From positions 14,826-78,825 of the forward strand of contig CAUZOB010000001.1 of the NCBI GenBank assembly GCA_963581185.1: 64,000 bases of DNA, in the 5' to 3' direction. A model generated the notes under the pieces. It ran no database searches. It was given only the letters and a program-made list of their open reading frames with translations, and was not told where the DNA came from. Each line of letters opens with the position of its first letter. Positions within the stretch are counted from its first letter, which is position 1. Below are positions 45,434-63,183 of the stretch, piece by piece. The position numbers were made by a program, and so were the translations under genes. This DNA is from Planctomycetota bacterium (GTDB lineage: Bacteria > Planctomycetota > Planctomycetia > Pirellulales > Pirellulaceae).

Positions 45434-47119
45434 GTGGACCAGAAAATCTTGTGGGAGTTGATTTTCGGCCTGATTGGCGGTCTGGGTATATTCCTGCTCG
45501 GCATGAAGAACATGTCCGAGGGCATGCAGGCCGTGGCTGGCGGCGGCTTACGGCGGATGATCGGCATCGCCACGAACAATCGCATCTCCGCAACGGGCGT
45601 GGGCCTGGCTGTTACCTGCCTCGTCCAATCAAGCTCCATCACCACCGTGATGGTGGTCGGATTCGTCAACAGCGGATTGATGACGCTGACTCAATCAGTC
45701 GGTGTGATCATGGGTTCCAATATTGGCACCACGGTCACCGGCTGGATTCTCGTCCTCAAGATCGGCAAGTACGGACTGCCGATCCTGGGACTGGCCGCGT
45801 TCACCTACTTGTTCTCCAAGGGCGACCGTGTCCGCTACATCGCGATGGCGATCATGGGCATTGGGATGGTCTTCTTCGGGTTGGAGCTGATGAAGGAGGC
45901 CTGCTCGCATATCAGGTCATTGCCAGAGTTTAAGGAGTGGCTTGGTCATTTCAATGCCGAGTCGTTCGTCGGCATGGCGCAGTGCATGCTAGTCGGCTGT
46001 GTCCTGACCGTGATGGTCCAGTCGTCCTCTGCCACGCTGGGAATCACCATTGCCCTGGCACTGACCGGCGTCATCTCTTATCCAACTGCCGCCGCATTGG
46101 TGCTGGGCGAGAACATCGGCACGACCATCACCGCCTTGCTTGCATCGATCGGAGCAAACACTAACGCCCGCCGTGCCGCCTACTTTCATGTGCTCTTCAA
46201 CATGATCGGTGTCTGCTGGATTGGCGCTATCTTCTTCATGTATGTGGAATTCGTCCCCTGGGCGATCGGTGTCGATGTGACGCACTCAGTCCCGGATGGG
46301 AAGGGCAATATGATATTTCCACATACCACCGCTGCCATCGCCGCGACGCACTCCATCTTCAACATTATCAATACGGCGTTGTTCCTGCCATTTGCTCATA
46401 TCCTTGCCAGGATGCTGACCCGCGTGGTGCCAGACCGCGAGGCCAAGGAAGCTCCTCGCCTGACGAACCTCGATGTTCGCATGCTGGAAACACCGGTCGT
46501 TGGCATTGAGCAATCGCGTGTGGAAGTGCTGCGTATGGCACATAGTTGCAAGGACATGATGGGCTGGCTGAAGAAGTCGGCGGCTGAAGATGAGCCGGAT
46601 TCAAAGCGGGTCAAGAAGCTGCAACAGGTGGAAAAGGATCTCGACACGATGCAGGATGAATTCGTCACGTTCATGACGAACCTGTTGTCCGGTAATGTTC
46701 CCCACCAGGTGATCGAGGAGGGACGTCAGCAGTTGCGGATGGCGGACGAGTACGAGTCAATCAGCGATTGCCTTGCCAGCATTCAGAAGTTTCAGTTGAA
46801 GTTGGGAAAACAGGGGCATCGCTTTTCAGAGGATCAACGCGCAGAACTCAAGGCACTGCATGACCTGGTCGCTGATTTCCTGGATCTTGTCCTCAATGCC
46901 TACGAGCAGCGAGAGTCGGACGCCATGCCCTCTGCGAGTGAGTTGGCGTCGACAATTTCCAAGCGAGCTAAGGAACTGCGTAACAACCATATCAGCGGCC
47001 TGAGCGAGACAAGGACGGAGCCTTACGTGAATCTGGCCTACACCTCATCCGTGGCAGCCTATCGCTCGGTGCGGGACCATGTCGTCAATATCACCGAAGC
47101 GATGAACGAAGAGAATTGA
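45434..47119 (+). CDS. Na+/phosphate cotransporter family protein (NptA-like, with PhoU-like C-terminal domain)
   Basis: Motifs are GGLGIFLLGMKNMSEGMQ, the duplicated repeat SSSITTVMVVGFV / SSSATLGITIALA, and a helical PhoU-like tail. The start is uncertain: GTG 45434 after GGGGAG is preferred, and the track gives TTG 45401. Confidence 0.85.
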   Translation: MDQKILWELIFGLIGGLGIFLLGMKNMSEGMQAVAGGGLRRMIGIATNNRISATGVGLAVTCLVQSSSITTVMVVGFVNSGLMTLTQSVGVIMGSNIGTTVTGWILVLKIGKYGLPILGLAAFTYLFSKGDRVRYIAMAIMGIGMVFFGLELMKEACSHIRSLPEFKEWLGHFNAESFVGMAQCMLVGCVLTVMVQSSSATLGITIALALTGVISYPTAAALVLGENIGTTITALLASIGANTNARRAAYFHVLFNMIGVCWIGAIFFMYVEFVPWAIGVDVTHSVPDGKGNMIFPHTTAAIAATHSIFNIINTALFLPFAHILARMLTRVVPDREAKEAPRLTNLDVRMLETPVVGIEQSRVEVLRMAHSCKDMMGWLKKSAAEDEPDSKRVKKLQQVEKDLDTMQDEFVTFMTNLLSGNVPHQVIEEGRQQLRMADEYESISDCLASIQKFQLKLGKQGHRFSEDQRAELKALHDLVADFLDLVLNAYEQRESDAMPSASELASTISKRAKELRNNHISGLSETRTEPYVNLAYTSSVAAYRSVRDHVVNITEAMNEEN

Positions 47120-47195
47120 GTCATCAGCTGCGACGAATTCGTGGCTCGAGGCCAGATCTCAGTTGCTCGTGGTTAGGTCTTCGTCCCGTCTCCCG

Positions 47196-48677
47196 CTAGC
47201 TCTCAAAAACCTCGCGGACCACGTGCGACTCATCCGGACCGGTCAAGCGCTGGTCCAGGCCCTGGTAGAAGAATGCCAGCTGCTCGTGATCGAGTCCCAT
47301 CAGGTGCAGGATCGTGGCATGCAGGTCGGAGACATGCACGGGCCTGTCAATGCTGCCGAAGCCAAAGTCGTCGGTCACGCCGATCGCCTGACCACCTCGC
47401 ACGCCACCACCGGCCAACCACATGCTGAAAGCATGCCAGTTGTGATCGCGGCCTGGCTTATCAACTCCCTCACTCGTCGGCGTGCGGCCAAACTCGCCGC
47501 CCCAGACAAACAGCGTCTCGTCCCAGAGGCCACAGTCCTTCATATCCTGCATCAATGCCGCCATCGGACCATCTGTTTCTCCGGCATGCAGCTTGTGGTT
47601 CGTAATGCAATCTGTATGGCCGTCCCAGGTATCCTCGATATGTCCGCCGCCGGAATAGAGCTGGACAAACCGCACTCCCTTTTCCAGCAAGCGTTTGGTA
47701 ACCAGGCACTTGCGGCCAAAGTCACTTGTGAGCGGGTTATCCAGCCCGTATCGCTCGTGCGTCTGCTTGGATTCTCTACCCAGGTCAACAACACCCTGGG
47801 CAGCAGATTGCATGCGAAAAGCGAGTTCGTACGATTCAATTCGAGCTGCCAGTTCTGATTCTCGCTGGCGTTGCAGCAGGTGCTGCTTGTTCAGTTTTCC
47901 CAGCAGGTCGAGGCTGCGGCGCTGACCCTCAGGGCTGATGCCGGCCGGGTTGTTGAGGTTCAACAGCGGCACGTCGCCGCTGCGAAAATGTGTACCCTGG
48001 TAAGCGGCCGGTATGTAGCCGCTGCTCCAGTTCGACGCGCTGCCAATCGGCCCTCCGCGGGGATCGATCATCACCACGTAGCCGGGCAGGTTCTGGTTAA
48101 ATGTCCCCAGGCCATAGTTGACCCAGGAGCCCAGGCTGGGACTGCCAATCCCCACCTTGCCGGTATTCATCTGGATACAACCCGAGGCATGGGCCGCCGT
48201 GTCGGTGTACATCGAACGAATCACACAAAGATCGTCGGCATGTTTGGAGAGCTGCGGGTAGAGGCTGCTGATCGGCAAGCCACTCTCGCCGAACTGTTTG
48301 AACGGGAACGGTGACTTCATCAAGTAACCAATCGGTCGGCCGTTCGATCCAACCTCCAACTCACCCACGTACTTCTCCCCATCATGCTTGTCCAGCATCG
48401 GCTTGGGGTCGAACGTGTCGACCTGGCTCGGCCCGCCATTCATGAAGAAGAAGACGCAGCGGGTTGCGCGGGGCTTGAAGTGCGGTTCTCTGGGTGCCAG
48501 CAGCCCCTCTGGACCGGTCTGGGGTTCGGCCTGCAGTTGATCGAAATAGCCATCGCGACTGAGTAGATCCAGCAGGGCCAGGCCGGTAAACCCCGCTCCC
48601 CCTTCCCACAACATCTGGCGACGTGTCTGGCCACAGCCTGTCTGGTTGGGAATCAGCTGTCGATGTGAGGTTGTCAT
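47196..48677 (-). CDS. DUF1501 domain protein (Tat signal)
   Basis: I prefer ATG 48677 (MTTSHRQLIPNQTGCGQTRRQMLWEGGAGFTGLALLDLL). The family block is VWGGEFGRTPTSEGVDKPGRDHNWHAFSMWLAGGGVRGGQ. It lies 23 nt downstream of a DUF1549/DUF1553 gene. Confidence 0.9.
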   Translation of the reverse strand: MTTSHRQLIPNQTGCGQTRRQMLWEGGAGFTGLALLDLLSRDGYFDQLQAEPQTGPEGLLAPREPHFKPRATRCVFFFMNGGPSQVDTFDPKPMLDKHDGEKYVGELEVGSNGRPIGYLMKSPFPFKQFGESGLPISSLYPQLSKHADDLCVIRSMYTDTAAHASGCIQMNTGKVGIGSPSLGSWVNYGLGTFNQNLPGYVVMIDPRGGPIGSASNWSSGYIPAAYQGTHFRSGDVPLLNLNNPAGISPEGQRRSLDLLGKLNKQHLLQRQRESELAARIESYELAFRMQSAAQGVVDLGRESKQTHERYGLDNPLTSDFGRKCLVTKRLLEKGVRFVQLYSGGGHIEDTWDGHTDCITNHKLHAGETDGPMAALMQDMKDCGLWDETLFVWGGEFGRTPTSEGVDKPGRDHNWHAFSMWLAGGGVRGGQAIGVTDDFGFGSIDRPVHVSDLHATILHLMGLDHEQLAFFYQGLDQRLTGPDESHVVREVFES

Positions 48678-48700
48678 CTGGGGAGCTCCGTCACGATTTA

Positions 48701-50968
48701 TCAATCGGAATATACGATTTCGTTGAGGTTCAATAAGATTCGGCAGAACTGCACCAGGGCAACATGCTCGGGGGCCATGCCGGCCTGGTCCGGCTGCCTG
48801 CGAGCGAGCTCGGTTTCCTGCTCAAGGAATTCCAGCGTCACTCGCTTTTCCTGCCCGCTGGGGAATCGAGAGAGTGCCAGCCGATAAGCAAGTCTCACCT
48901 GGTCCACCGGCCTGGGTCCTGCTTCGCTAACTAGCCTGTCTGCCAGGTAGCCGGCCTGGCGATTGACAAAGTCGCCGTTGAACATCGTCAGCGCCTGCGG
49001 CGCGACGCTGGTAACAAGTCGCTCGGGGGCAGGACGCGTCGTGTCGCAGAGGTCCAGTACCTCCAGGAACGGTACGATCAACGATCGCTTGACATAAGCA
49101 TAGATGGTGCGGCGATTGGCACTCTGTTCATCGAAAGCTGGCCAGATCGACCTCTTGTCGGCATGACCGTCGAGCGCCTCGCTGGGCACAAAGGGATACA
49201 TGCTGGGGCCATACATGGTGCGATCCAGCTTGCCGCTGATGGCCAGCAGCGAGTCACGAATTGCCTCCACTTCAAGCCTTACATAGGGCTTGCGCCACAA
49301 TAACAGGTTCTCAGGGTCTTCGTCGTAGTACTTGTCGTTACCAACCGTCGACATGCGGTAGGCGTTGCTGGTCATGATCAGCCGATGCAGCTTTTTCATC
49401 GACCAGTTGGCATCGTGGACGAACCAGTGGGTCAGCCAGTCGAGCAACTGCTGGTGAGTCGGTGGCGTGCCCATCACGCCAAAGTCGCTGGGCGTGCGCA
49501 CAATACCGGCCCCGAAATGATGCTGCCAGATGCGATTGACAATCACGCGTGCCGTAAGAGGGTTCTCGGGGCGGGCGATCCAGCGGGCCATTGTCAGTCG
49601 GCGGCGCGTCGTTCGCTCACTCGCCGCCAGGAACTCAGGCTGCCCACGCGTCAGCACCGTTGGGACTCCCGGTTGGACCACCGGTCCCGGACTGCTGGCA
49701 CTGCCTCGCACCAGCAAGTGTGTGATCGGTGGCTGGGGGGAGGGCTCAACATAGAAATAGCCATTTGGCAGATCAGGCATCTCCTTGCGCAGTTGCTCGA
49801 TCTGCTTGAGTCCCTGCTGGCAGGTCTCGGCCGCTACTGGTTCCATCAATGGTGACAGCTCCTTGACGATCTGGGCCAGCTGCCCGCCAATCCGCTGCTG
49901 TTCGTCCCCCGTCAGCGTGCCCCACTCCTTGACCAGCAGGCTGCGGACATTCTCCGGCAGGCTGGTTTCGATCTGCTCCGCCTTGAGTTTCTCCAGCAGC
50001 AGGCGGGCTCCCGCCTGGTAGGCCTGGTGAACCTGTTTGCGCTGGCTGCTGATCGCAGCCCTGGCTGTATTCAGCTTTGCCACTTCTGCGACCGAGCCTG
50101 CCGGTGAGTCGAGATCGGTACGGCCACTTTGCGGTCGTTGCAGGGGGTCCAGGACTGCGATCATGCGGTAATAGTCATGCTGCGTGTAGGCTTCAAACTT
50201 GTGGTCATGGCAGCGTGCGCAGGCCAGCGTGATACCGAGGAATGTCTGCGAGGTGGCATTCAGCATGTCATCCAGCTGATCGAAACGATCCTGGGGGAAG
50301 TCAGCTGGCTCATCATCCCAGGGCCCCAGTCGGTAGAAGCCGGTGGCAATCATCGATTCCGTGCTGGCATCGTCCAGCTCGTCGCCGGCCAGCTGTTCCA
50401 GCACGAAGCGGTCGTAGGGCTTGTCGTCATTGAAGCTGCGGATCACGTAATCACGAAATCGCCAGACGCTTGGCTTGCCGGCGTCGCGCTCGTATCCATT
50501 TGTCTCGGCAAATCGCACCAGGTCCAGCCAGTGGCGTCCCCAGCGCTCACCATATCCCTTGTCAGCGAGCAGGTCGTCGATGTACGTGTCGAAGGCCTCG
50601 GGAGACGGTTGTGAGAGCAACAAGTCCTGTTGCTGCAGGGTCGGTGGCAGACCGACCAGGTCCAGCGAGATGCGTCTCAGCAGCGCATTCGCGCTGGCAG
50701 CTTCGGCTGGATGCCAGCCGCGCCGTTCAAGTTTATGCAGGATGAAGGCATCGATTTCGTTGCGGACCCAGCGGGTCTGTCGGGTTTCCGGAACGGCCGG
50801 CCTTTTGACAGCTTGAAAGGCCCAGTGCTCACGATCCTCGTCGGTCACCGATGCGTCTGCCCTGACCAGTTCATCAGCCGGCTTGTCCTGCGACCAGGCA
50901 GGCAGGGCCATGCCGAGCAGGAGCAGCAATGAAGCACATGTTCGGTAAGAGTTGGCTTGTCCTATCAC
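48701..50968 (-). CDS. DUF1549/DUF1553 domain protein
   Basis: 755 aa with a GTG start at 50968 and a signal peptide. It has IDAFILHKLERRG, LLRRISLDLVGLPPT and CARCHDHKFEAYTQHDYYRM. The C-terminus ...FCRILLNLNEIVYSD is typical of the family. Confidence 0.9.
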   Translation of the reverse strand: MIGQANSYRTCASLLLLLGMALPAWSQDKPADELVRADASVTDEDREHWAFQAVKRPAVPETRQTRWVRNEIDAFILHKLERRGWHPAEAASANALLRRISLDLVGLPPTLQQQDLLLSQPSPEAFDTYIDDLLADKGYGERWGRHWLDLVRFAETNGYERDAGKPSVWRFRDYVIRSFNDDKPYDRFVLEQLAGDELDDASTESMIATGFYRLGPWDDEPADFPQDRFDQLDDMLNATSQTFLGITLACARCHDHKFEAYTQHDYYRMIAVLDPLQRPQSGRTDLDSPAGSVAEVAKLNTARAAISSQRKQVHQAYQAGARLLLEKLKAEQIETSLPENVRSLLVKEWGTLTGDEQQRIGGQLAQIVKELSPLMEPVAAETCQQGLKQIEQLRKEMPDLPNGYFYVEPSPQPPITHLLVRGSASSPGPVVQPGVPTVLTRGQPEFLAASERTTRRRLTMARWIARPENPLTARVIVNRIWQHHFGAGIVRTPSDFGVMGTPPTHQQLLDWLTHWFVHDANWSMKKLHRLIMTSNAYRMSTVGNDKYYDEDPENLLLWRKPYVRLEVEAIRDSLLAISGKLDRTMYGPSMYPFVPSEALDGHADKRSIWPAFDEQSANRRTIYAYVKRSLIVPFLEVLDLCDTTRPAPERLVTSVAPQALTMFNGDFVNRQAGYLADRLVSEAGPRPVDQVRLAYRLALSRFPSGQEKRVTLEFLEQETELARRQPDQAGMAPEHVALVQFCRILLNLNEIVYSD

Positions 50969-52585: not shown

Positions 52586-54199
52586 ATGTCCCTGCAACGC
52601 GTTACCCTGGCCATCACGCTGGCCGCCAGCCTGCTATCAGCATCCTGGTTGATAGCTCACCCGCAAACGCGGCAGCGATTCCTCCGTCAGCAGGACGCCA
52701 GGCGCGGACAAGTCCAGTCGCCGCTGCGGACCAGTCAACCGCTGTGCGAGCTGACGCTTGATTTGATCCTGCCGGGCCAGCGCAAGCCGGTACCTGGCAA
52801 TGTGCGGATCACCCCAGTCGGTGCGGACAAGCCGCTGGATATCGGCGAGCTGGTGCAGCGCGAGCTGGGCTGGTTCGCATTCGCTGCCGGCGAGACGATC
52901 CATCTGCCGAGGGCCAATTACAAGGTCGAAATCCTGCAGGGGATCGAGTCGCTGGTGGAGACACGCCAGCTGGATTTGACCGGCAAAACACGAGCCAGGC
53001 TGAAGGTCTCCACGCAGTCGTTTTATTCAACTCAATCGCAGGGCTTGCAGAGCGCCAACACGCACCTGCACTTGATGAAGTTGACCTATAGCGAGATGGA
53101 CCACTACTTGCGTACCGTTCCACAGGCCGACGACCTGGATCTGCTGTTCGTGTCTGTTCTGAGACGGATTCCGGATGAACGCGACTATATCACCAACCGC
53201 TTCAATCCCGCTGACGTGGAACGTTTTGGCCGCGATGGGATCCAGCTCGGTTTTGGTGAGGAACACCGTCACAATTTTGGACGGGGTGGTGAGGGTTTTG
53301 GCCATGTGATGCTGCTGAATATTCCCCAGCTGGTGCGGCCCGTCAGCATCGGCCCAGGCATCATGCGCAGTGGCACCGATGGAATTCCACTGCGTCGAGG
53401 CATTCTCAAGACACATCGAGATGGTGGCACGGTGATCTGGTGCCATAACACGTTTGGCCATGAGGATCTTCCCAGCTGGACCGAGGGACTGGTCCACGCT
53501 CAGAATATTTTCGATGGCGGCAGCCGCGGTGAGTACGATGTCTCCTTCTATCGCTACCTTGACCTGGGAATGCGAGTTCCTTTTTCAACCGGCACCGACT
53601 GGTTTATCTACGACTTCAGCCGTGTCTATGTGCCGCTGGCCGGGAAACTGACTCAGCGACGCTGGCTTGAGCAACTGGCTGCCGGCCGTTCATTTATTAC
53701 CAATGGCCCGCTGTTGGAATTCCAGGCGAGTGGACATTCGATCGGTGACACGATTCAGCTCGCTGAGGCAGGCGAGATCACGCTCTCTGGTCGTGCCCTT
53801 GCCCGTGAGGATTTTTCGCATCTTGAACTGGTCCACAATGGCACAGTGATCGAGCGATTTGCGACCCGGCCGGTGGATGGCCATTTTGAAGCCAGCATGA
53901 ACAAGACCGTGTCGCTGACTGAGCCGGGCTGGTTCGCTCTCAGGACCTCGACTGAGGCGGGGAATAATGCGTTTGGCAAGCCGCTGTTCAGTCACACCAG
54001 CCCGATCTACGTCCAATACCAGGGCCGCGATCGATTTGAGCCTAAGGTGGCCGAGGGGATGGTCCGCGAGATGGAAGCAAGCATGGAGTATATCGGCCAG
54101 ATGGCGGTCTTTGCCGATCAGCAAGAACGCGAGGCGATCATGGAAGTTTACCATTCGGCGATCGCCAAGCTGCAGGGCAGAATTCAGCGAGGAGAGTAA
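52586..54199 (+). CDS. Secreted CehA/McbA-like (PHP-type) metallohydrolase, putative
   Basis: 537 aa with a signal peptide. His/Asp-rich metal-ligand-like blocks are SANTHLHL, GEEHRHNFG, VIWCHNTFGHED and FSTGTDWF. The assignment is from motif memory only. Confidence 0.5.
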   Translation: MSLQRVTLAITLAASLLSASWLIAHPQTRQRFLRQQDARRGQVQSPLRTSQPLCELTLDLILPGQRKPVPGNVRITPVGADKPLDIGELVQRELGWFAFAAGETIHLPRANYKVEILQGIESLVETRQLDLTGKTRARLKVSTQSFYSTQSQGLQSANTHLHLMKLTYSEMDHYLRTVPQADDLDLLFVSVLRRIPDERDYITNRFNPADVERFGRDGIQLGFGEEHRHNFGRGGEGFGHVMLLNIPQLVRPVSIGPGIMRSGTDGIPLRRGILKTHRDGGTVIWCHNTFGHEDLPSWTEGLVHAQNIFDGGSRGEYDVSFYRYLDLGMRVPFSTGTDWFIYDFSRVYVPLAGKLTQRRWLEQLAAGRSFITNGPLLEFQASGHSIGDTIQLAEAGEITLSGRALAREDFSHLELVHNGTVIERFATRPVDGHFEASMNKTVSLTEPGWFALRTSTEAGNNAFGKPLFSHTSPIYVQYQGRDRFEPKVAEGMVREMEASMEYIGQMAVFADQQEREAIMEVYHSAIAKLQGRIQRGE

Positions 54200-54921
54200 T
54201 GGACGGACTCAATCACAGACCTGTTGCGAGGCTGGCGTGTTTCGCCTTCGTGATCTGTGCCTTGCTGCCATCGGTCAGCAGAGCCCAGCAGTCGGCCATG
54301 ATCTCGGTGTTCGATGCGATCGACAATGGCCAGCTCGATGTGCGCGTGGTTGCCAAACACGCCAATCAGCTGACCATCATGCTGCACAATACGACCGAGC
54401 AGCCTCTGGTCGTGAAGCTGCCGAGCGTCTTTGCTGCGGTGCCAGTTTTGCCGGAGCAGCAACGCTTGTCCGCTGCCAGCACCCAGCCACAATCGCTTGG
54501 TATCGGCTATTCATCGCCGACAATTCGCAAGGTTGCCCCGCCTGGTAATGGCCAGCTCTGGGGCGCTGTCAATTCAGGCGGCGTGTTGCAGGTGGGGCCC
54601 GGCCGCGTTGTCCGCCGCACACTCAGGTCAGTCTGCCTGGAGTACGGCAGTCCGGAGCCGACACCGAAGGACAAGTACAAGCTGGCTCGTATTGAGGATG
54701 TTGAGAGCAACAAGTATGTCAGCAGGCTGCTGGGTTATCTGCGAGCAGATTCACATCGAGTGATCCAGTTGGCGGCCTGGCACCTGAATAACAAGATGAC
54801 CTGGCAACAGCTGTCGACGATCCGAATTCCTCCCATGCCTGGCCGTCCTGGCGGTGTATTTCGGCAGCAGGAGCTGCAGACAGCTTATCGGCTGGTTGAG
54901 TTTCTGACGGAGAGTCCGTAG
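54199..54921 (+). CDS. Secreted hypothetical protein
   Basis: 240 aa with signal peptide ARLACFAFVICALLPSVSRAQQ. Its ATG shares one base with the upstream stop (TAATG). I recognise no motif. Confidence 0.6.
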   Translation: MDGLNHRPVARLACFAFVICALLPSVSRAQQSAMISVFDAIDNGQLDVRVVAKHANQLTIMLHNTTEQPLVVKLPSVFAAVPVLPEQQRLSAASTQPQSLGIGYSSPTIRKVAPPGNGQLWGAVNSGGVLQVGPGRVVRRTLRSVCLEYGSPEPTPKDKYKLARIEDVESNKYVSRLLGYLRADSHRVIQLAAWHLNNKMTWQQLSTIRIPPMPGRPGGVFRQQELQTAYRLVEFLTESP

Positions 54922-54931
54922 AGGTTGCAGG

Positions 54932-57900
54932 TTACCGCTTGGCCTGCAGGATCAGGCCGGCATAGCCCACCACGCGACTACTGTCGCCACTCACGTCTGC
55001 ACTGGTGGTATAGCCGACCTGGCTGCAGGAACCGAGCTGGCCCAGTTGCCGCAGGCACTGCATCACGATCACGGCAGGCCGCATGCCACACATGCTGATC
55101 TCTTTCTCTGTGACCGTTTCGTAAAGCTGAGCTGGATCCAGCGACTCCATCGCCGCCAGCGCGAGTGCGTCGACCTGGCGCGTCCGCTTGTCATTCGCAA
55201 AGTGATTCATGTCACTGGAGATGACCAGCAACGGCTGCTGCGGCAACGTGCCCAGCACGCCTGCCAGCTGATCTCCAAGGCCCTGGCAATCTGCCAGGCT
55301 GGCGTTGCCCACGGCGATTCCCACCACCCGTGTCTTCGGTGCCAGGCGCGATAGCAGCGGCAACTCAATTTCTATCCCATGTTCGTTTCGATGTGCCGCT
55401 TCATCCAGCTCCAGGCCGTCAATGCTGTCGGCCAGCACCTGGGCCAGTTCCATATCTGTCTCGATACGCTTTCCTGGAATGGACCAGGCGGCGTGTGGAT
55501 CGATCGCCCAGTCCGCCCCGAGTGGGGTGTGCTTGGGACTAATAATGATCACGGTGGAAGGGATCTCGACCCGCTTCAGTACATCGGCGGCCAGGCGGCC
55601 GGAAAAGACCAGCCCGGCATGCGGGACCATGACTGCCGCGGCAGCCATTTTTTCGTCGGGAATATCTCCCAGCAGATCGTCGGTCATGGCCGCCAGCTCG
55701 TCAGCGTCGCCGGGATAAAAACGTCCTGCCACGGCTGCAGCCCGGGTTGAGTTGTCATTCTCCTGGCTGGCCTGTCGCAGCATGCTGAATCGGAATGGGC
55801 TGGTCGTTGAAGCGCTGCGATAGCTGACCAGCTGCCAGTCCTTGAGGTGTGTGACCTTGGCGAGTTCACTCAGTTCATCGACGCCTTGTTGTGCTGACTG
55901 ACCGCGGTCGCTCAGCCAGGCACTCTGCTCACCGTCACTGATCACGATCGCTCGCTGTTGATCGATGGCGGCGGGATCGGCCGTCTCCAGGCTGCCGTGC
56001 GGAATTGGATCTTCCAGCAACAGTAGCTGTGGCTGCATCTGCTCAACGAATTGCCGTTTCACGTCCTGGCGGCCAAGAGCTCTGGCAAGGTTTTCAACCA
56101 GCTGGAACAAGGTGGCTTGTAGGGGAACCTTGTTGCCCGCTGAGAGTCGGCCTGATTGGATCGTCCCACCGCTGCCAGGGTCGGTCAGCTGCAGGGCAAG
56201 ACCGTGGATCATCATGTCCGGGCAGTTAGTGAGGTAATAGTTGGGAGTCGCACCAGCGATCAGTGCTGCCAGGTTCTGGCGGCTGTGGTCGGCCAGCGCA
56301 CTCAGCTCAGCTGGCTGCAGGAGGGCGGAATCGTCGATTGAGATTAGCACGCTGGTATCCCAGGCTGCCTCGATCACCTGGACTTCGAAAGTTTGCAGGC
56401 TGGCATCGTCCTGCTGCCAGGCATCTTCCGGCAGGCCGGCCTTGTGGCACACCCGTCGCAGGAACTGCTCGCTGTCCCAACCGAAGTCAACCGCCACGAC
56501 CGGAAGCAGCAGGCCACTCTTGTTACCCTGTCGGATGACCAGCCCGTGGTGACCTACCTGGATCACACTCTGGCGCTGGTCGGCGGGGATATCGACAGGC
56601 TGAAAATTGTGCAGCAGGGATATATCGACTTTCAGGCCCTCCAGTTCGGCTGGCGAAATGGGCGGAAAACGTCGATCTCGAGTTGCGGTGCTGACGGCAG
56701 CCTGTTGAAGCGCGTCGGCCAGCGAAAATGGTCGGTTCAATACCCCGCAACAGGCGCGCAACTGTTGGTCCTTCTTGAGCGTTACGAAGCAGCCCATCAC
56801 GGTCGAATCGGCTGCTGGACCAAGTGCATCTGCCAGGTCCGGGGAGGCGTCGCCTACGACTGCCTTAGCCAGCAGCTGGCAGGTGGCGCGGTGAACCCGC
56901 TGCTGGTCTGGTTCAGACAGCGGGCTGAAATCGGTATTGGGACTCGCCGATTGTGGCGAGTCAGCGGAAGAGGACATGGCGGGGTCCTGTAGTCGAGGAT
57001 TTGGCTTACTGGCGTAGTCCTGGATTCGCACGGGCTGGCGTTTACGGCCCCAGTCGCCGGGCTGGTCAGCAAATCGGCCGGCAACCTGGTGTCCACATTG
57101 GCCACACCTGTTGCCATCCAGCTGGTAGCTACCGAGCTCGTACCAATCTCGTTGAATCAGCAGCGTACTGCAGGACGGACAGTAAGTGCTCTGGTGCTGT
57201 TCGTCGTTGACATTGCCGACGTAAGCGTGACGTATTCCCTGTTCTTTCGCCAGCGAATGTGCACGTAGCAGCGTTTCGTGCGGCGTACGCGGCTTGTCGG
57301 TCATCCGGTAGTCGGGATGAAAAGCAGAAAAATGGACCGGCACGTCGTCCCCCAGGTTGGCCAGGATCCAGTCCACCATCCTGGAGAGTTCGTCGTCGCT
57401 GTCGTTTTCTCCAGGAATGATCAGGTTGGTAATCTCGAACCAGGTATCGCTTTCATCCGCCAGCCACTTGAGCGTGTCGAGTACAGGTTGCATGTGAGAG
57501 AGCGTGATCAGTCGATAGAAATCTTCGTTGAAAGCCTTGAGGTCGACGTTGGCTGCATCCATCACCTCAAAGAAGGGCTGACGAGCCGCTTCGGATATGT
57601 AACCTGCTGTGACCGCCACGGTCTTGATCCCCCGCTGGTGGCAGGCACGGGCTACATCGATTGCATATTCGGCCCAGATGACGGGGTCGTTGTAGGTGAA
57701 AGCCACACTCTGGCAACCGAGTTGCAGCGCTGCTTCGGCAATCGTCTCCGGGGTCGCTTCCTCACTCAGCTGTCGGATTTCCCGCGACTTGGAGATATCC
57801 CAGTTCTGGCAGAACTTGCAGCCCAGGTTGCAGCCAGCAGTACCGAAGGAGAGCACGCTGGTTCCAGGGTAAAAGTGGTTGAGCGGCTTTTTCTCGATCG

Positions 57901-58132
57901 GGTCGATACAAAAGCCGGTGCTGCGGCCGTAGGTCGTCAGCTGCATCTGGCCGCCGCTGTACTCGCGCACGAAACAAAATCCGCGGTCACCTTCGGCCAG
58001 GTGACATTCGCGCGGGCAGAGGTCACAGATGACGCGTCCGGCGGTCTCACTATCATGCCACCAACCACCGGGCATGTTGCCATCGGCGGAAGGGTCTACT
58101 TGCGGCGGGAGGCCCACGACTCGGCCAGCCAT
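54932..58132 (-). CDS. Fused AmmeMemoRadiSam system protein: radical SAM enzyme + AMMECR1 domain + cryptic domain + Memo domain
   Basis: 1066 aa in one uninterrupted frame. The radical SAM part (aa ~20-370, nt ~58075..57025) has WWHDSETAGRVICDLCPREC, CNLGCKFCQNW (CX3CX2C, 57832..57809) and a CPSC...CGQC ribbon. The AMMECR1 part (aa ~405-590) has GCFVTLKKDQQLRACCG, RDRRFPPIS, GHHGLVI and LLLPVV. The Memo part (aa ~798-1066) has AGRFYPGD, PHAGLVFSG, IIISPKHT, SSDMNHF, CGMRPAV and VGYAGL. The start is ATG 58132 or ATG 58075. Confidence 0.85.
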   Translation of the reverse strand: MAGRVVGLPPQVDPSADGNMPGGWWHDSETAGRVICDLCPRECHLAEGDRGFCFVREYSGGQMQLTTYGRSTGFCIDPIEKKPLNHFYPGTSVLSFGTAGCNLGCKFCQNWDISKSREIRQLSEEATPETIAEAALQLGCQSVAFTYNDPVIWAEYAIDVARACHQRGIKTVAVTAGYISEAARQPFFEVMDAANVDLKAFNEDFYRLITLSHMQPVLDTLKWLADESDTWFEITNLIIPGENDSDDELSRMVDWILANLGDDVPVHFSAFHPDYRMTDKPRTPHETLLRAHSLAKEQGIRHAYVGNVNDEQHQSTYCPSCSTLLIQRDWYELGSYQLDGNRCGQCGHQVAGRFADQPGDWGRKRQPVRIQDYASKPNPRLQDPAMSSSADSPQSASPNTDFSPLSEPDQQRVHRATCQLLAKAVVGDASPDLADALGPAADSTVMGCFVTLKKDQQLRACCGVLNRPFSLADALQQAAVSTATRDRRFPPISPAELEGLKVDISLLHNFQPVDIPADQRQSVIQVGHHGLVIRQGNKSGLLLPVVAVDFGWDSEQFLRRVCHKAGLPEDAWQQDDASLQTFEVQVIEAAWDTSVLISIDDSALLQPAELSALADHSRQNLAALIAGATPNYYLTNCPDMMIHGLALQLTDPGSGGTIQSGRLSAGNKVPLQATLFQLVENLARALGRQDVKRQFVEQMQPQLLLLEDPIPHGSLETADPAAIDQQRAIVISDGEQSAWLSDRGQSAQQGVDELSELAKVTHLKDWQLVSYRSASTTSPFRFSMLRQASQENDNSTRAAAVAGRFYPGDADELAAMTDDLLGDIPDEKMAAAAVMVPHAGLVFSGRLAADVLKRVEIPSTVIIISPKHTPLGADWAIDPHAAWSIPGKRIETDMELAQVLADSIDGLELDEAAHRNEHGIEIELPLLSRLAPKTRVVGIAVGNASLADCQGLGDQLAGVLGTLPQQPLLVISSDMNHFANDKRTRQVDALALAAMESLDPAQLYETVTEKEISMCGMRPAVIVMQCLRQLGQLGSCSQVGYTTSADVSGDSSRVVGYAGLILQAKR

Positions 58133-58268
58133 GGTCGGATTCCTTGTATTCGTTGTTGCTGAGTTGTTCTCGACCCAAGAATAAACCAGTCGACCGATGG
58201 CGGGTAGCCAATTCGGTGGCCTTGGAGGATAACAGGAAGCTCAGTGGAGGATCCTGAGTGCTCGAAAG

Positions 58269-59045
58269 ATGTACGAACTAGCAACCGAATACGAGATCTG
58301 GCAGTACCTGCTAGCTGGTGTGATCCTGCTCTGCAGCAGCCTGCTGCAGGCAGTGATCGGCTTCGGTGCGGGTGTATTCGGTATCCCGCTGCTGCTGATG
58401 TCCGGCTTTGATCATCGCGTTGCGATCCCGATCATCGTGATGACCTCGATGACTCAATCCCTGATCGGATCGGTGCGTCTGCGGAAACATTCCCAGTGGA
58501 AAATGGCCTGGCGCCCGGCCTTGATCCGTATCTCGATCATACCACTTGGCGGCTTCTTGCTTGTCCTGGTTGGCCGCCTGGGTGCCCAGTATGTTCGCCA
58601 GGCGATCGGCGGTGTGCTGCTGTTGATCGTCTTTATCAAGTGGCGGATCAAGGTCGAGCCGACCCATGAGTTACCGACTTTCTGGGTCTGGGTAGCATTC
58701 CCAATCAGTGGCATCCTGCTGGGATTTTGTGGAATGGGGGGACCGGCCGTTGCCCTCTGGGTGATGGCTCAGCCCTGGAGTGCGATTCGTAGCCGGGCCT
58801 TTCTGTTCAACATGCTGGTAACTGGCATGGTGCCGCTGACGATTCAGCTGATTATCCTCTTCAAGACTCAGGCCCTGTTGGGATTGGCGATTGGTGCTGC
58901 CGGCTTACCGCTTATTTTCCTCGGCACCTGGCTGGGGATTTCGACGGGTGACAAATTGCCACGAAAACAACTCAATACAGCGTCCCTGATCGTACTGACC
59001 CTGATCGCCATCAGCGCTATCCTGACTCCGCTGCTGACAGGCTAG
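58269..59045 (+). CDS. TauE/SafE-family sulfite/anion exporter
   Basis: 258 aa with about 8 TM helices. The N-terminal pattern LLAGVILLCSSLLQAVIGFGAGVFGIPLLL and the internal repeat GFCGMGGPAVALWV are typical of the family. Confidence 0.85.
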   Translation: MYELATEYEIWQYLLAGVILLCSSLLQAVIGFGAGVFGIPLLLMSGFDHRVAIPIIVMTSMTQSLIGSVRLRKHSQWKMAWRPALIRISIIPLGGFLLVLVGRLGAQYVRQAIGGVLLLIVFIKWRIKVEPTHELPTFWVWVAFPISGILLGFCGMGGPAVALWVMAQPWSAIRSRAFLFNMLVTGMVPLTIQLIILFKTQALLGLAIGAAGLPLIFLGTWLGISTGDKLPRKQLNTASLIVLTLIAISAILTPLLTG

Positions 59046-59337
59046 CGGCTTACAGATTACAGCTGAGGGTTAGGCGCGGATCCTGCAGAATCCTCCGAGA
59101 GCCAGTCAACTGTCCAACGGCAGCTTTTTCAACGCCCAATCGAGCTGATCGTTATAACCTGCTCGCTGGCTGGTACATCCGCTACAGAATTCCCCCCGCC
59201 CGGCGTCGTCATGAGTGAATTCAGCTGACCTTTCGCTGGCAAGGCGCATAATTGCGCACATACGGGGCACAGCGATCGAGGAGGCCAGTCCATGGGCTGG
59301 CGATGGCCTCCAGGAACAGAGATCGCAGGGAGGCACC

Positions 59338-62300
59338 ATGCGCGGGCGAAGTCGTCATTGGCGGCTGCGCGCTGGACGGAATCAGCGTTGGCAGAAAACA
59401 GAAAAGCGGAGGCTTTTCTTTGAGCAGCTGGAACCACGGCAGATGCTAACTGCCGCTGCATTCTCGATTTTCGAGAATACGGACTCGGTCCAGCCCGAGC
59501 CAGTTGCCGGTCTTATCGACCCGCTGTTGATCGACCAGGCGGTCGCCAACCTGACCTCCACTGGCACCAACCAGCCCATCGTTCAGCGACAGGTTGCCGA
59601 TCTCCACAGCGGCAATGAATTCTCGCTCCAGACCATGCAATCATCCGGCCTGGTACGGCTGGATGAACTGCGAGCCAATCCGGAGCTGGCCGATATCGAT
59701 GGCCGTGGGTTTTCTGTTGTGATTATCGATACCGGTATCGACCTGGATCACCCCTTCTTTGGGACCGATGCTGACGGTGATGGGATCGCCGACCGGATCG
59801 TCTTCAACTATGACTTTTCCGGCGGCAATGACAACGATGCCTCGGACTACGACGGGCACGGCTCAAATGTCTCCAGTATTGTTGCTTCCAGTGACAGCCT
59901 CCGACCTGGCATGGCATCCGCTGCCGGCATCATTCATCTCAAAGTGTTTCCCGACCAGGGGGGTGCTGCCACCACCCGCGACATCGAGGAAGCTCTGCAG
60001 TGGGTAGTCGCCAACGCTGGTCTTTACAACATTGCCAGCGTCAACATGTCACTCGGCTATGGCAACTTTGCCTACGCCCGCAACAACACCGCATGGTCAG
60101 ATGAGTTCAAGGCCCTGGAGTCGCTGGACGTGATCATGGTGGCCGCAGCGGGCAATGACTACTACGAGCTGGAATCGACCGCCGGCATCTCCCTGCCTGC
60201 TGCCGATCCCGGCGTGATCTCAGTGGGTGCTGTCTTTGCTGGCAACATCGGCGGCGTGCGTTATTTCGACGGAGCCCATGCGGCACGCAGTGGCCCCGAT
60301 ATCATCACGCCGTTTTCCCAGCGGCATCCCGCGATGCTGGATGTCTTTGCCCCGGGAGCTCCGATTTCCGGAGCTGGAGCCAACGGCGGCCTGCTGACCC
60401 AGCACGGGACCAGCCAGGCGACACCACACGTGGCTGGAGCAGCGGCACTGGCTCAGCAGATTTCCACACAACTGCTTGGCCGACGATTGACGGTCGACGA
60501 ATTCCGCCACCTGCTGGCCACAGCCTCAACCACGATTACCGATGGCGATGATGAAAACGACAATGTTCTGCATAGCGGCCTCGAGTACCCACGGCTGGAC
60601 CTGGTAAAAATGGCCGCGGGGATTCAACAGCTGCAACCCGGCGCAATTGAAGGCCGGGTCTTTCATGACCTCGACGCCGATGGTTCAACGGCCACCGACC
60701 CCGGACTCTCGGGACAACTTGTCTATCTCGACAGCAACAATAACGGCCAGCTGGATGCGACCACAACAAGCTTCGACTCGACCGCAGCCAGCCAGGTGAT
60801 TGCCGACCAGTCGATGCTGCAATCCACCATCCTGGTTGAAGACCAGCAAGGTCCGCTGACCGACGTGAATGTCAGGATCGATGTTCGCCATAGCTGGAAT
60901 GCTGACCTGGTAGTGTACCTGGTCAGCCCGCAGGGGACACGAGTTGAGCTGATCTCAGACATTGGTAACGGACAGACGGACTTTCGCGATACAGTCTTCG
61001 ACGACCAGGCACGGTCGCCGGTCCATCGAGGTTCGTCGCCCTACCAAGGGTCCTACCGTCCCACCGAGTCGCTCGGCCAGCTTGCCGGAGAAAGTGCGGC
61101 TGGCGAATGGACCCTGGAAGTTCATGATCGATTTGAGCGTGATGAGGGGCGACTGGAGTCCTGGTCGCTTGAATTGAGTCACACCGAATTGTCGACACGG
61201 ACTGGCAGTAGCGGAGAATTTCAATTCGACAGCCTGGTCTCTGGACAATACTTCGTCCGCACCGACGTGCCTGCCAACTGGCTGATGCTGCCGACCGCAG
61301 TCGCCAGTGGTGGTCTGCAGGAGCTGACGGTGACAGCCGGACAGACAACCGCAGCGGTCGAGTTTGCCTATCAGACATCCCTGCAGATCTGGCTGACCGA
61401 CAGCGTGATTCGTGAAGACGATGGTCCGCAGGCAACCGAGCTGGTTGTCTCGCGCCAGGGAGTGTCGTTAGCGGATGACCTGTGGGTGACACTCGTCCAT
61501 AACGATGCCAGTGAAATTGACTTGCCGGGCCAGGTGGTTATCCCAGCTGGCGCTGATGAAGTAACGGTGGCTGTGAACACGGTCGACGACCGCCTGCGTG
61601 ACGGTACGCAGCAGGTGACGATCACAGCCAGCTCGACGGGGCTGGGAAGCGATACAGCGGTGCTGGCTGTTGACGATCACGAGCTGCTGACACTCACCAG
61701 CCAAACGTCCAGTGTCAGGGAAAACGCCGGCTCGGCTGCGATCGAGCTGCTTATCGAACGCAGCGACTTCGAGACCCAAGCGCCATTACAAATCGAATTG
61801 ACTTCAAGCGACAGCAGCGAACTGGCTCTGCCCTCCAGCGTCCTGATGGCTGCCGACGTAACGTCTCTGACGATCCTGGTTGACGTTATTGACGATCAGA
61901 TTCTTGACGGCACCCAGCAGGTGCAGGTACGGGCCAGGGCTGCCGGCTTCCTGCCAGCAGAAATCGAGCTGAATGTACTGGACTATGAGCCGCTGCAGCT
62001 TGCTGTGGACGACCATGTTGCCTGGGTATCAGCCACGGCTGGCAGCAACACGCTGACCATTAATCGCAATCCGCTTGAATTGGCTGATCCGCTGTCGGTT
62101 CAGCTTGACTGGCAGGGCGCCGTTGGACTGGCAGTCGCCGACCAGTTCGTGATTCCTGCTGGAGTTGAATCGGCCGATCTGCAGATCCAGGTCGAGGATC
62201 CTGGTAACTGGTCGCAAACACGGCAGGTTGTTGTGACCGCCGAGGCATCTGGCTATGAAGCGACCACCGCCAGATTCTGGTTCTCTGATCGGGCTGGCCT

Positions 62301-63183
62301 GCATCTCGAATCGGACCAGGCATCGGTTGCTGAGAACGCTGGAGCGGCGGCACTTACCTGGATCGTCAGCCGGGCAGGTATCGGTACAGCAGAGGAACTG
62401 ACGGTCCAATTGAGCAGCAGCGATACCAGTGAACTGGCTGTGCCCGATGTGATCGTGATTCCCGCGACGGCTAGCAGCATTGAGTTCATGGCCGACGTGA
62501 TTGACGATCATCTGTTTGACGGTACTCGGCCGGTCACGGTGACCGCACGAAGTGACGGCCTGGAGCAGACCAGCCTGGTGATTGAGGTTAGCGACTACGA
62601 GACCTGGCAGAATCCGGTCAATCCGCTCGATGTCGACAACAACGGCCGTGTTACTCCCTCCGACGTGCTGGCGCTCATCAACATGATGGAGCAATCCGGG
62701 AGCATTCCGCTGCCAGTCAACACGCTACCCGAGAATGCACCCGCTCCGTTCCTGGATGTCAACGGTGACTTCCAGTTCTCGCAGGCGGATATGAAGCCGG
62801 TTGTCGATCACTACAACGAGCTGACGCTGGCTAACCTGAGGGCACGTCAGGCCGAGGCGGAGAGGAATCGATCCAGCGATGCCAAGCAGGTGATGGCACA
62901 GCTGGTCCGGCTGAGCTTGCCCCAGCAGGTTGTCAGCAGGAGTGTTGTGATACCGGCCACGTCGGTTGTGATGCCTGCCAGCTTCGACGGCGGTGAACCG
63001 CGCCAGCGGGTCTTTGCTGAGACTCGTGATTTTGTCCGGATCTCGCGGCCAGCACGACCAGCGCCAGCGGTTCTTGCCTGGCAGCTGCCAGGCGATCCAG
63101 CGGAAGGCTTCGATTGGAGCGACCTGGACGAGCTGCTGCAGCTGTTAGAGCCCGTAGAACTCGGCAGCGGTCTGTCCGTATAG
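59338..63183 (+). CDS. Giant secreted S8 (subtilisin-family) serine peptidase with proprotein-convertase P-domain, Calx-beta array and dockerin-like C-terminal module
   Basis: I prefer ATG 59338 after GGGAGG (MRGRSRHWRLRAG...RRLFFEQLEPRQMLTAAAF). The catalytic triad contexts are VVIIDTGID (Asp codon 59728), DGHGSNVSS (His codon 59857) and HGTSQATPHVAGAAAL (Ser codon 60412). The P-domain is VNVRIDVRHSWNADLVVYLVSPQGTRVELISD...WTLEVHD. At least 5 Calx-beta-like repeats occur (VxExxGxA...VxxVDDxxxDGTQxVTxTA). The dockerin-like loop is NPLDVDNNGRVTPSDVLALIN. Confidence 0.9.
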   Translation: MRGRSRHWRLRAGRNQRWQKTEKRRLFFEQLEPRQMLTAAAFSIFENTDSVQPEPVAGLIDPLLIDQAVANLTSTGTNQPIVQRQVADLHSGNEFSLQTMQSSGLVRLDELRANPELADIDGRGFSVVIIDTGIDLDHPFFGTDADGDGIADRIVFNYDFSGGNDNDASDYDGHGSNVSSIVASSDSLRPGMASAAGIIHLKVFPDQGGAATTRDIEEALQWVVANAGLYNIASVNMSLGYGNFAYARNNTAWSDEFKALESLDVIMVAAAGNDYYELESTAGISLPAADPGVISVGAVFAGNIGGVRYFDGAHAARSGPDIITPFSQRHPAMLDVFAPGAPISGAGANGGLLTQHGTSQATPHVAGAAALAQQISTQLLGRRLTVDEFRHLLATASTTITDGDDENDNVLHSGLEYPRLDLVKMAAGIQQLQPGAIEGRVFHDLDADGSTATDPGLSGQLVYLDSNNNGQLDATTTSFDSTAASQVIADQSMLQSTILVEDQQGPLTDVNVRIDVRHSWNADLVVYLVSPQGTRVELISDIGNGQTDFRDTVFDDQARSPVHRGSSPYQGSYRPTESLGQLAGESAAGEWTLEVHDRFERDEGRLESWSLELSHTELSTRTGSSGEFQFDSLVSGQYFVRTDVPANWLMLPTAVASGGLQELTVTAGQTTAAVEFAYQTSLQIWLTDSVIREDDGPQATELVVSRQGVSLADDLWVTLVHNDASEIDLPGQVVIPAGADEVTVAVNTVDDRLRDGTQQVTITASSTGLGSDTAVLAVDDHELLTLTSQTSSVRENAGSAAIELLIERSDFETQAPLQIELTSSDSSELALPSSVLMAADVTSLTILVDVIDDQILDGTQQVQVRARAAGFLPAEIELNVLDYEPLQLAVDDHVAWVSATAGSNTLTINRNPLELADPLSVQLDWQGAVGLAVADQFVIPAGVESADLQIQVEDPGNWSQTRQVVVTAEASGYEATTARFWFSDRAGLHLESDQASVAENAGAAALTWIVSRAGIGTAEELTVQLSSSDTSELAVPDVIVIPATASSIEFMADVIDDHLFDGTRPVTVTARSDGLEQTSLVIEVSDYETWQNPVNPLDVDNNGRVTPSDVLALINMMEQSGSIPLPVNTLPENAPAPFLDVNGDFQFSQADMKPVVDHYNELTLANLRARQAEAERNRSSDAKQVMAQLVRLSLPQQVVSRSVVIPATSVVMPASFDGGEPRQRVFAETRDFVRISRPARPAPAVLAWQLPGDPAEGFDWSDLDELLQLLEPVELGSGLSV

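Follow-up and report, generated by a model that had tools for sequence, protein, structure and literature searches.

A probable four-module, single-chain AmmeMemoRadiSam protein with a predicted second AMMECR1-fold domain, an architecture shared across Planctomycetota

The gene on the reverse strand at 54932..58132 of the window, by which we mean the whole 64,000-nucleotide stretch of DNA that was analyzed, very likely encodes a single chain in which a radical SAM enzyme (rSAM, module R), an AMMECR1 domain (module A), an AMMECR1-like module (module X), and a Memo domain (module B) follow each other in this order, and this architecture is, with the same high likelihood, the standard one in Planctomycetota. 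Taken together with the mechanism proposed below, this constitutes the best explanation overall, to which we assign a probability of roughly 0.65. The gene itself is an ordinary, lineage-typical one among hundreds of its kind. The following features were assigned to it:

54932..58132, reverse strand: four-module single-chain AmmeMemoRadiSam gene (ORF list, full-length colinear homologs, and AF2 model)
57023..58063, reverse strand: module R, AmmeMemoRadiSam radical SAM enzyme, residues 24-370 (TIGR04337)
57809..57832, reverse strand: CX3CX2C cluster motif of module R, C101-N-L-G-C105-K-F-C108 (motif search and conservation)
56885..57022, reverse strand: flexible linker of about 45 residues, residues 371-416 (alignment and AF2)
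56375..56884, reverse strand: module A, canonical AMMECR1 domain, residues 417-586 (TIGR04335)
55745..56374, reverse strand: module X, predicted cryptic second AMMECR1-fold domain of about 210 residues, residues 587-796 (AF2 and Foldseek)
54950..55744, reverse strand: module B, Memo domain, residues 797-1061 (TIGR04336)

According to the ORF list, the gene is one uninterrupted reading frame with an ATG start, which comprises 1066 aa plus a stop codon. A Pfam search with the 1066-aa chain yielded Radical_SAM at residues 98-249 (PF04055, E 3e-20), AMMECR1 at residues 444-586 (E 3e-44), and Memo at residues 799-1060 (E 3.4e-50), and the TIGRFAM equivalog models TIGR04337, TIGR04335, and TIGR04336 were all matched above their curated cut-offs. 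The initial annotation had proposed that the three components lie in a single intact frame in the order rSAM, AMMECR1, extra module, and Memo, each of the three named modules with intact signature motifs. The Pfam and TIGRFAM matches and borders bear out both the frame and the order, and the catalytic residues of the named modules are invariant in all 121 aligned sequences. It could also be that separate genes were merged here through an error in sequencing or assembly or through an overlooked stop codon or frameshift. Four loci from long-read metagenome-assembled genomes (MAGs; L038, L052, L058, and L062) do appear to contain frameshifts, but these show the reverse situation, in which a fused gene has been broken. 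We regard a merging artefact as practically negligible, given that the frame is uninterrupted, that an identical protein is found on an independent JGI contig (P0001), and that in 40 of the 62 genomes scanned the four modules share a single unbroken frame (3 of the 40 cut at the contig end), with conserved, ungapped junctions. Moreover, the chain is colinear from end to end and nearly gap-free with 120 homologous clusters of 1034-1161 aa, which excludes a hidden frameshift or a chimeric assembly at the sequence level. M1 (58132) is favored as the start, since the near-invariant residues P9, P10, and G18 lie N-terminal to M20, where the JGI gene call starts. The AF2 model of the whole chain has a mean pLDDT of 86.5 and a pTM of 0.60, and the relative placement of the domains in it is predicted with only moderate confidence.

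Module R matches TIGR04337 with 592.2 bits (cut-off 220) over model positions 3-349 of 349. The three cysteines of the CX3CX2C motif, which in radical SAM enzymes is the motif for the SAM-binding [4Fe-4S] cluster and is predicted to be so here, are conserved in all 121 aligned sequences; in the AF2 model, which was made without an Fe-S cluster, they sit in a low-pLDDT loop (residues 98-114). Two further four-Cys groups are present in module R, namely C36/C39/C43/C53, of which C53 is found in 120 of 121 sequences and the other three at 90% or more in a 50-sequence alignment (A3), and C318/C321/C343/C346, all four of which are found in 121 of 121. The nearest solved fold is pyruvate formate-lyase (PFL) activating enzyme (3cb8, E 6.7e-9, TM 0.71), which has the same CX3CX2C motif, and the next-ranked NCBIfam matches are likewise glycyl-radical activases. 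However, module R scores far below the cut-off for this group (TIGR02493, 60.9 bits versus 231.75) and differs from it by the additional N- and C-terminal four-Cys groups and by the lack of a glycyl-radical enzyme partner. The linker behind module R is the sole poorly conserved, gappy stretch of the chain (about 21-42% identity, 15-19% gaps), and its residues 377-397 have a pLDDT below 50.

Module A matches TIGR04335 with 141.7 bits (cut-off 99) over model positions 7-174 of 175. The RGChG motif, which contains the proposed catalytic cysteine, and the DxRa motif of the AMMECR1 family (Balaji and Aravind 2007, PMC2034487) correspond to L-R459-A-C461-C-G463 and D486-R-R488-F, respectively, and none of the 121 aligned sequences deviates at R459, C461, G463, D486, or R488. 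Judged by these motifs, module A is a catalytically intact AMMECR1 domain. Its sequence matches the archaeal proteins PH0010 (1vaj), MM0484 (1zq7), and ST0229 (1wsc) with E values of 8e-30 to 4e-21, the closest at 31% identity, and its fold superimposes on 1vaj with a TM of 0.87 and an rmsd of 1.6, whereby the archaeal proteins are stand-alone and form a single domain unit. Module B matches TIGR04336 with 244.3 bits (cut-off 26) over model positions 1-269 of 270. H838, H868, and C1015 occur without exception in the 121 sequences and align with human MEMO1 (3bcz/7kq8), which points to a Memo/PCAD-Memo metal triad; E917-H918, D974, and H977 are also invariant. The MEMO1 ligands H49, H81, and C244 bind Fe and Cu (PMC11081632). 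The fold of module B is that of human MEMO1 (3bcz, 7kq8, 7l5c) with a TM of 0.81 and the same Fe/Cu His/His/Cys triad, whereas the sequence identity is 22-23% and MEMO1 is a stand-alone eukaryotic protein, for which signalling and iron-homeostasis roles have been proposed and no enzymatic activity has been found (PMC11081632).

The extra module between A and B was modelled confidently by AF2 (pLDDT 92.9, pTM 0.86). A Pfam scan of X alone and a profile search of X against PDB sequences gave no match at E<=10, so that the link to the solved AMMECR1-family proteins is visible by fold comparison only. The sole Foldseek matches at E<=1e-3 were 1zq7, 1vaj, and 1wsc, all AMMECR1-family entries, with E values of 1.7e-6 to 1.4e-4, a probability of 1.00, a TM of 0.43-0.56, and 11-13% identity. 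An hhalign comparison of X with A pointed to a faint yet specific similarity, with an E value of 3.8e-4 over 125 columns, compared to about 0.2 for the controls, and in the AF2 chain model the secondary-structure elements occur in the same order in X and A. The RGChG and DxRa motifs are missing from X, and in the hhalign register the Cys column holds S, A, or F. Thus, X is AMMECR1-like by its predicted fold and is not a family member by the sequence definition, as it has neither the active-site motifs nor a Pfam or TIGRFAM match. The X family comprises 230 representatives in 1.84e9 proteins. Among the loci and representatives analyzed, X always follows A and precedes B wherever those flanks are present, it is never paired with a module outside the R/A/X/B set, and it is retained in every A-B fusion of the planctomycete clade. 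No description of X was found in the literature searched, and none of the family models tried recognizes it. X appears to be an undescribed, diverged second AMMECR1-fold module that is confined to planctomycete A-X-B and R-A-X-B proteins.

As for the role of X, it might be a functional, non-catalytic, built-in partner of the catalytic AMMECR1 domain, in which case the chain would present an AMMECR1 (pseudo)dimer docked on Memo, with a patch of Q672, H712, and RPGxPLQ as substrate-binding surface; we consider this specific picture rather unlikely. The family consensus contains the motifs GATPxYY, SxRPGxPLQxTL, DPAMHGT, and KSAW, Q672 is invariant in the aligned homologs, and N620, P630, H712, G713, D708, and R666 show little or no variation. 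The same residues speak against another reading of low probability, according to which X is an inert relic, i.e., a decayed AMMECR1 duplicate that is kept as a mere spacer with no ligand-binding or regulatory role. The polar motifs DPAMHGT and RPGxPLQ would be unexpected in a pure spacer, and neither the confidently predicted fold nor the retention in all A-B fusions of the clade fits with decay. What an inert relic would explain is the loss of the RGChG cysteine and of DxRa, and the fact that X is the fastest-evolving module, with about 21-44% identity per 30-residue block. In addition, several family-conserved residues are lost in the present genome, where X ranks among the most divergent copies (76% of strongly conserved positions kept, compared to a median of 96%), the motifs read SAGNKVPLQ and DPIPHGS, and the near-invariant R666 is replaced (R666G). 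With this divergence and the loss of R666, a conserved ligand site becomes less credible for the X copy of this genome.

The R-A-X-B architecture is shared by at least 120 clusters (90% identity) from Pirellulaceae, Planctomycetaceae, and Fuerstiella marisgermanici, and JGI names the homologs "rSAM enzyme/protein B/protein A". A motif-limited scan of the GTDB species representatives found at least 62 Planctomycetota genomes; this number is a lower bound, since the scan used an 8-sequence X subset and required the exact pattern [LF]xDPAMHGT, by which genomes with DPIPHGS, as in the present case, are missed. At the protein level, the closest DNA homologs share about 55% identity, a distance at which synonymous sites would be saturated. 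Thus, the fusion, which had been taken for a departure from the three-gene norm, turns out to be the usual form in planctomycetes. It was also stated beforehand that this interpretation would have to be given up if the fusion proved both common and already characterized, of which only the former applies: the searched literature, which does not cover Burroughs et al. 2019, contained no paper describing the fusion and no functional study (AmmeMemoRadiSam, AMMECR1/MEMO1, DUF3467). The A-X-B core is also found without a fused rSAM module, the rSAM then being a separate gene, which is adjacent in three loci (L027, L039, and L014; e.g., in Gemmataceae). In five further A-X-B loci (L012, L013, L017, L035, and L056) no rSAM gene was found in the flanks of up to 8 kb per side, so that A-X-B is not in all cases tightly coupled 1:1 to an rSAM module. 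A-X-B is the invariant core, with the rSAM module fused in most lineages and separate in others.

Compared to the AmmeMemoRadiSam three-gene system, all three equivalog models are matched over their full length with intact motifs, and the components are encoded together, here fused in one ORF. The difference is that the system consists of separate proteins (model lengths 175, 270, and 349) instead of one polypeptide, and that no model recognizes the AMMECR1-fold module between A and B. Gene fusions of AMMECR1 with the dioxygenase (Memo) and a conserved rSAM/AMMECR1/dioxygenase neighborhood were already reported in 2007 (PMC2034487). That work linked the same three families by context, through a Rosetta-stone argument like the present one, and put forward the same RGChG cysteine as catalytic, whereas its fusions are two-domain; here, the rSAM is fused as well and X lies between A and B. 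The argument for one common substrate is thus not new, as A-B fusions have been known since then. The persistence of the fusion throughout the phylum supports a single common substrate for the three activities, and the joint action that had been proposed for the present gene remains a reasonable inference, strengthened in this way. The 1:1:1 stoichiometry that went with it is incomplete, because the chain has two AMMECR1-fold modules, of which only the first is catalytic, i.e., 1:1(+1):1. The new element is that the "extra domain" of 210 residues can be assigned to the AMMECR1 fold, as a second and diverged module of this kind. Both AMMECR1 and MEMO1 have counterparts from archaea up to humans and are tied to human disease, yet to our knowledge no biochemical activity has been established for either. 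A natural single chain with all partners provides a handy construct for biochemistry and structural work. If X were indeed the built-in partner, the chain would show in what stoichiometry the AmmeMemoRadiSam and AMMECR1-MEMO1 machinery works and would suggest, in concrete structural terms, how the products of the human disease genes AMMECR1 and MEMO1 might function. Burroughs et al. 2019 reportedly describe "Memo-Ammecr1 systems" and are said to predict a nucleotide base or an isoprenoid as the substrate.

With regard to the mechanism, we infer as the likeliest reading that the chain is a self-contained multi-step modifying enzyme, which would act on one substrate. The rSAM module would generate a 5'-deoxyadenosyl radical and thereby activate the substrate or an enzyme-bound intermediate, Cys461 of the AMMECR1 module might serve as a covalent or radical carrier, and the metal centre of Memo could carry out a redox or ring-chemistry step. 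Module X, as a non-catalytic paralog and built-in pseudo-dimer partner, may scaffold A against B and/or widen the substrate-binding surface. This division of labor among the modules is tentative. The published prediction for the substrate is an RNA base (Balaji and Aravind 2007, PMC2034487). In contrast to this, it might be that the system modifies a protein or peptide and not RNA or lipid, and that the rSAM module abstracts a hydrogen from a protein substrate in the manner of the PFL activase, with the chain's own AMMECR1 module or a small partner, for instance a DUF3467 protein, as candidates. The resemblance of module R to the PFL-activating enzyme, whose structure 3cb8 contains a bound peptide substrate, and to the glycyl-radical activases would fit with this, and peptide-processing systems contain rSAM domains that are related to it (PMC7159879). 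Of 63 related loci, 16 have a tandem-DUF3467 gene directly upstream in the same orientation, and one more has it just downstream. However, a DUF3467 gene is found neither in the 64-kb window nor in most of the related loci, and the published context analysis favors the RNA base, so that a protein substrate appears quite unlikely. Stop-codon readthrough from the DUF3467 gene into the fusion was considered and rejected, since a shared frame interrupted by just one stop is seen in 5 of 17 pairs, where about one-third is expected by chance.

In the neighborhood of the fusion gene, one further feature was assigned:

58269..59045, forward strand: divergent TauE/SafE-family permease, a neighbor only and no part of the system (PF01925)

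The initial annotation had presented the gene as a rare, possibly unique Rosetta-stone fusion, which is perhaps functionally tied to this divergent anion exporter. All three modules are indeed fused, and the TauE gene is real (63.6 bits, cut-off 32.6), located at a distance of 136 nt on the opposite strand. The conserved link does not hold, as none of the 63 related loci has a TauE homolog at a distance of up to about 8 kb from the gene, and neither does the Fuerstiella locus. The rarity is likewise refuted, by the wide distribution of the same architecture, and the reading as a whole is very improbable. It was correctly noted that no obvious substrate gene adjoins the fusion gene. An Rfam scan of 54000-59500 (E<=1) detected no riboswitch or other RNA, and a scan for promoters and terminators yielded nothing above the shuffle expectation. 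A 240-aa ORF and an S8 protease were also considered as conserved neighbors and discarded, because neither is conserved in the related loci, and a 537-aa ORF is syntenic in the three closest MAGs only.

The AmmeMemoRadiSam gene is encoded as one chain composed of a radical SAM module (rSAM, R), an AMMECR1 module (protein A, A), an "extra domain" (X) and a Memo module (protein B, B), and an ORF scan as well as Pfam and NCBIfam/TIGRFAM searches agreed with the initial annotation on the coordinates, the module order and the presence of the extra domain. The features are as follows, whereby residue numbers refer to the fusion protein:

54932..58132, minus strand: R-A-X-B fusion gene, one uninterrupted 1066-aa ORF
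residues 24-370: module R, TIGR04337 (rSAM), 592 bits vs a cut-off of 220; Pfam Radical_SAM at residues 98-249
residues 417-586: module A, TIGR04335 (protein A), 142 bits vs a cut-off of 99; Pfam AMMECR1 at residues 444-586
55745..56374, minus strand: module X, residues 587-796, about 210 residues
residues 797-1061: module B, TIGR04336 (protein B), 244 bits vs a cut-off of 26; Pfam Memo at residues 799-1060

The three AmmeMemoRadiSam equivalogs of NCBIfam/TIGRFAM are each detected by full-length matches, all well above the curated cut-offs. In module R the CX3CX2C motif (C101/C105/C108) is invariant in all 121 aligned sequences, as are C318/C321/C343/C346, and C36/C39/C43/C53 are nearly so. 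The predicted active site of AMMECR1 consists of RGChG with an exposed catalytic Cys and of DxRa (Balaji and Aravind, PMC2034487); the corresponding motifs of module A are R459-A-C461-C-G463 and D486-x-R488-F, in which R, C, G, D and R are invariant. H838, H868 and C1015 of module B, likewise invariant, were aligned to H49, H81 and C244 of MEMO1, which coordinate Fe or Cu according to crystal structures and ITC (PMC11081632). Because these signature motifs are intact or invariant, the three catalytic modules look active at the sequence level. An AlphaFold2 model of the whole chain (50 sequences) gave a mean pLDDT of 86.5 and a pTM of 0.60, whereby low confidence was limited to the Fe-S loop 98-114, residues 273-276 and the linker 377-397. 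Fold searches with this model led from module B to MEMO1 (TM 0.81), from module A to PH0010 (TM 0.87, rmsd 1.6) and from module R to the pyruvate formate-lyase (PFL) activating enzyme 3cb8 (TM 0.71).

Over its full length the fusion protein is colinear with its homologs, 120 clusters at 90% identity and 1034-1161 aa in length, and the alignment shows, chain ends aside, gaps only at residues 361-420. One of these clusters (P0001) is a 100% identical protein encoded on an independent JGI contig. At the sequence level a hidden frameshift is thereby excluded. The JGI protein, 1047 aa in length, was called from M20. Since P9, P10 and G18, which lie upstream of M20, are near-invariant among the homologs, sequence conservation suggests the form that is longer by 58076..58132 (minus strand), with M1 at 58132 as the real start.

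Residues 587-796 (module X) matched no Pfam or NCBIfam/TIGRFAM model, the module searched alone gave zero Pfam matches at E<=10, and its profile yielded zero matches to PDB sequences. X is present in every homolog, almost gap-free, with the family motifs GATPxYY, SxRPGxPLQxTL, DPAMHGT and KSAW. Profile comparison with hhalign revealed a weak but specific similarity to module A (E 3.8e-4 over 125 columns), compared to E ~0.2 over 10-41 columns in the controls with the Memo and rSAM modules. An AlphaFold2 model of X (29-sequence alignment) reached a pLDDT of 92.9 and a pTM of 0.86, and Foldseek, run against the PDB, gave only five chains within E<=1e-3 (probability 1.00, E from 1.7e-6 to 1.4e-4). 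These belong to 1zq7, 1vaj and 1wsc, the AMMECR1-family structures, which the canonical module A matches by sequence (E 8e-30 to 4e-21). X (607-784) and A (407-590) have the same succession of secondary-structure elements in the model of the whole chain, except that X lacks three short helices. On account of the profile signal, the confident fold, the Foldseek matches and the element order, X is a second, cryptic AMMECR1-fold domain. In the hhalign register X has S, A or F at the column of the catalytic Cys and DxRa is gone; by sequence definition it falls outside the AMMECR1 family, though the fold is present. What the present analysis adds is this assignment of the extra domain: a diverged module of AMMECR1 type that is confined to A-X-B and R-A-X-B proteins of planctomycetes.

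Judged from the alignment, X of this genome is among the most divergent of the 120, with the other three modules normally conserved: it keeps only 19 of the 25 positions that are >=90% conserved in the family (76% vs a median of 96%, second lowest of the set), compared to 97% of their own such positions for R, 87% for A and 93% for B. G replaces the near-invariant R666, SLRPGxPLQ has become SAGNKVPLQ and DPAMHGT has become DPIPHGS.

The fusion gene is intact and lineage-typical; it had been correctly observed, but its supposed rarity does not hold. At least 120 clusters have the same three Pfam domains, from sources that name Pirellulaceae, Planctomycetaceae, "Planctomycetota bacterium" and the complete genome of Fuerstiella marisgermanici, and the JGI product name already reads [quoted passage not shown]. 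A functional study of the fusion was not found in the literature searched. A scan of GTDB species representatives identified at least 62 genomes with the exact peptide pattern [LF]xDPAMHGT, which is a lower bound because DPIPHGS of this genome escapes it. They span Pirellulaceae, Planctomycetaceae, Gemmataceae, Isosphaeraceae, Thermoguttaceae and Ca. Anammoximicrobium. Two of the contigs, binned in MAGs of Ca. Methylomirabilota (L030) and Ca. Nealsonbacteria (L031), carry the full planctomycete-type R-A-X-B gene, which is probably due to mis-binning rather than horizontal transfer.

Across these genomes X follows A and precedes B wherever such flanks are present, and in 40 of the 62 the four modules share one uninterrupted frame (3 of these end at a contig edge). 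In L027 and L039, both Gemmataceae, and in L014, rSAM is a gene of its own, next to and ahead of an A-X(-B) gene. L012, L013, L017, L035 and L056 have A-X-B and no rSAM gene within the flanking DNA (<=8 kb per side), so that the radical SAM protein of these genomes is either encoded at another site or missing. In six long-read MAGs (L038, L052, L058, L062, L018, L040) the fusion is broken across shifted frames, which looks like indel sequencing errors in a fused gene and not like separate genes. A search of 1.84 billion representatives with the X profile yielded 230 proteins at E<=1e-3, none of them a canonical AMMECR1 protein. The best 150 of the 230, annotated with purpose-built module HMMs, comprise two full-length classes, A-X-B (~656-734 aa) and R-A-X-B (~1048-1152 aa), besides fragments, and X never occurs there with a module from outside this set. 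The locus and representative surveys thus indicate that the conserved core is A-X-B, the rSAM fusion being a further, frequent step.

The TauE/SafE gene, suggested to share a promoter region with the fusion, is real; a conserved link is not, as the surroundings of the fusion were devoid of TauE homologs in all 63 loci, that of Fuerstiella among them. Around the fusion there is no Rfam match (riboswitch or other) and no promoter signal beyond chance. The only recurrent neighbour (17/63 loci) is a ~210-aa protein with two tandem DUF3467 (PF11950) domains, on whose function nothing was found in the literature searched and whose gene is absent from the 64-kb window. In 16 loci (listed as L002-L011, L013, L016, L017, L019, L021, L025, L032) it directly precedes the fusion, read in the same direction, and in L012 it lies just downstream, again on that strand. 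The gap from its stop to the open-frame start of the fusion is ~0-110 nt in most loci, and the two genes, with R-A-X-B or A-X-B, are probably co-transcribed. This neighbour, together with the PFL-activase-like fold of R, would fit a protein as the substrate, an alternative that we consider less likely. Published context analysis predicts an RNA base instead (PMC2034487).

The chain thus has four folded modules that have stayed together throughout the phylum, and in three of these the catalytic or metal site is intact; we put the probability of this architecture at about 0.9. The chain might be a self-contained multi-step modifying enzyme, in which R would start radical chemistry, Cys461 of A would carry or transfer an intermediate, as proposed (PMC2034487), and the Fe/Cu centre of B would perform a redox or ring-chemistry step; X could be a non-catalytic paralog serving as complex scaffold or extended binding surface. 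We regard this mechanism as tentative and rather doubtful. Burroughs et al. 2019 are said to add isoprenoid modification as a substrate class.

Further genes of the window are:

52586..54199, plus strand: 537-aa ORF converging on the fusion, no Pfam match
54199..54921, plus strand: 240-aa ORF converging on the fusion, no Pfam match
59215..63183, plus strand: 1322-aa secreted-type protein with Planc_extracel signal, S8 subtilase, proprotein-convertase P-domain, Calx-beta-like repeats and dockerin
43743..50968: two DUF1501 genes and a PSCyt2/PSD1 (DUF1549/DUF1553) gene, with a Na/Pi cotransporter-PhoU gene between

Homologs of the 240-aa protein occur in none of the loci; the 537-aa protein is conserved, at the corresponding place, in three Pirellulaceae MAGs from the deep ocean (L020, L022, L024). 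DUF1501 and PSCyt2/PSD1 form a characteristic planctomycete gene pair, the subtilase has the typical architecture of a planctomycete surface or secreted protease, and this remaining content is ordinary for planctomycetes.
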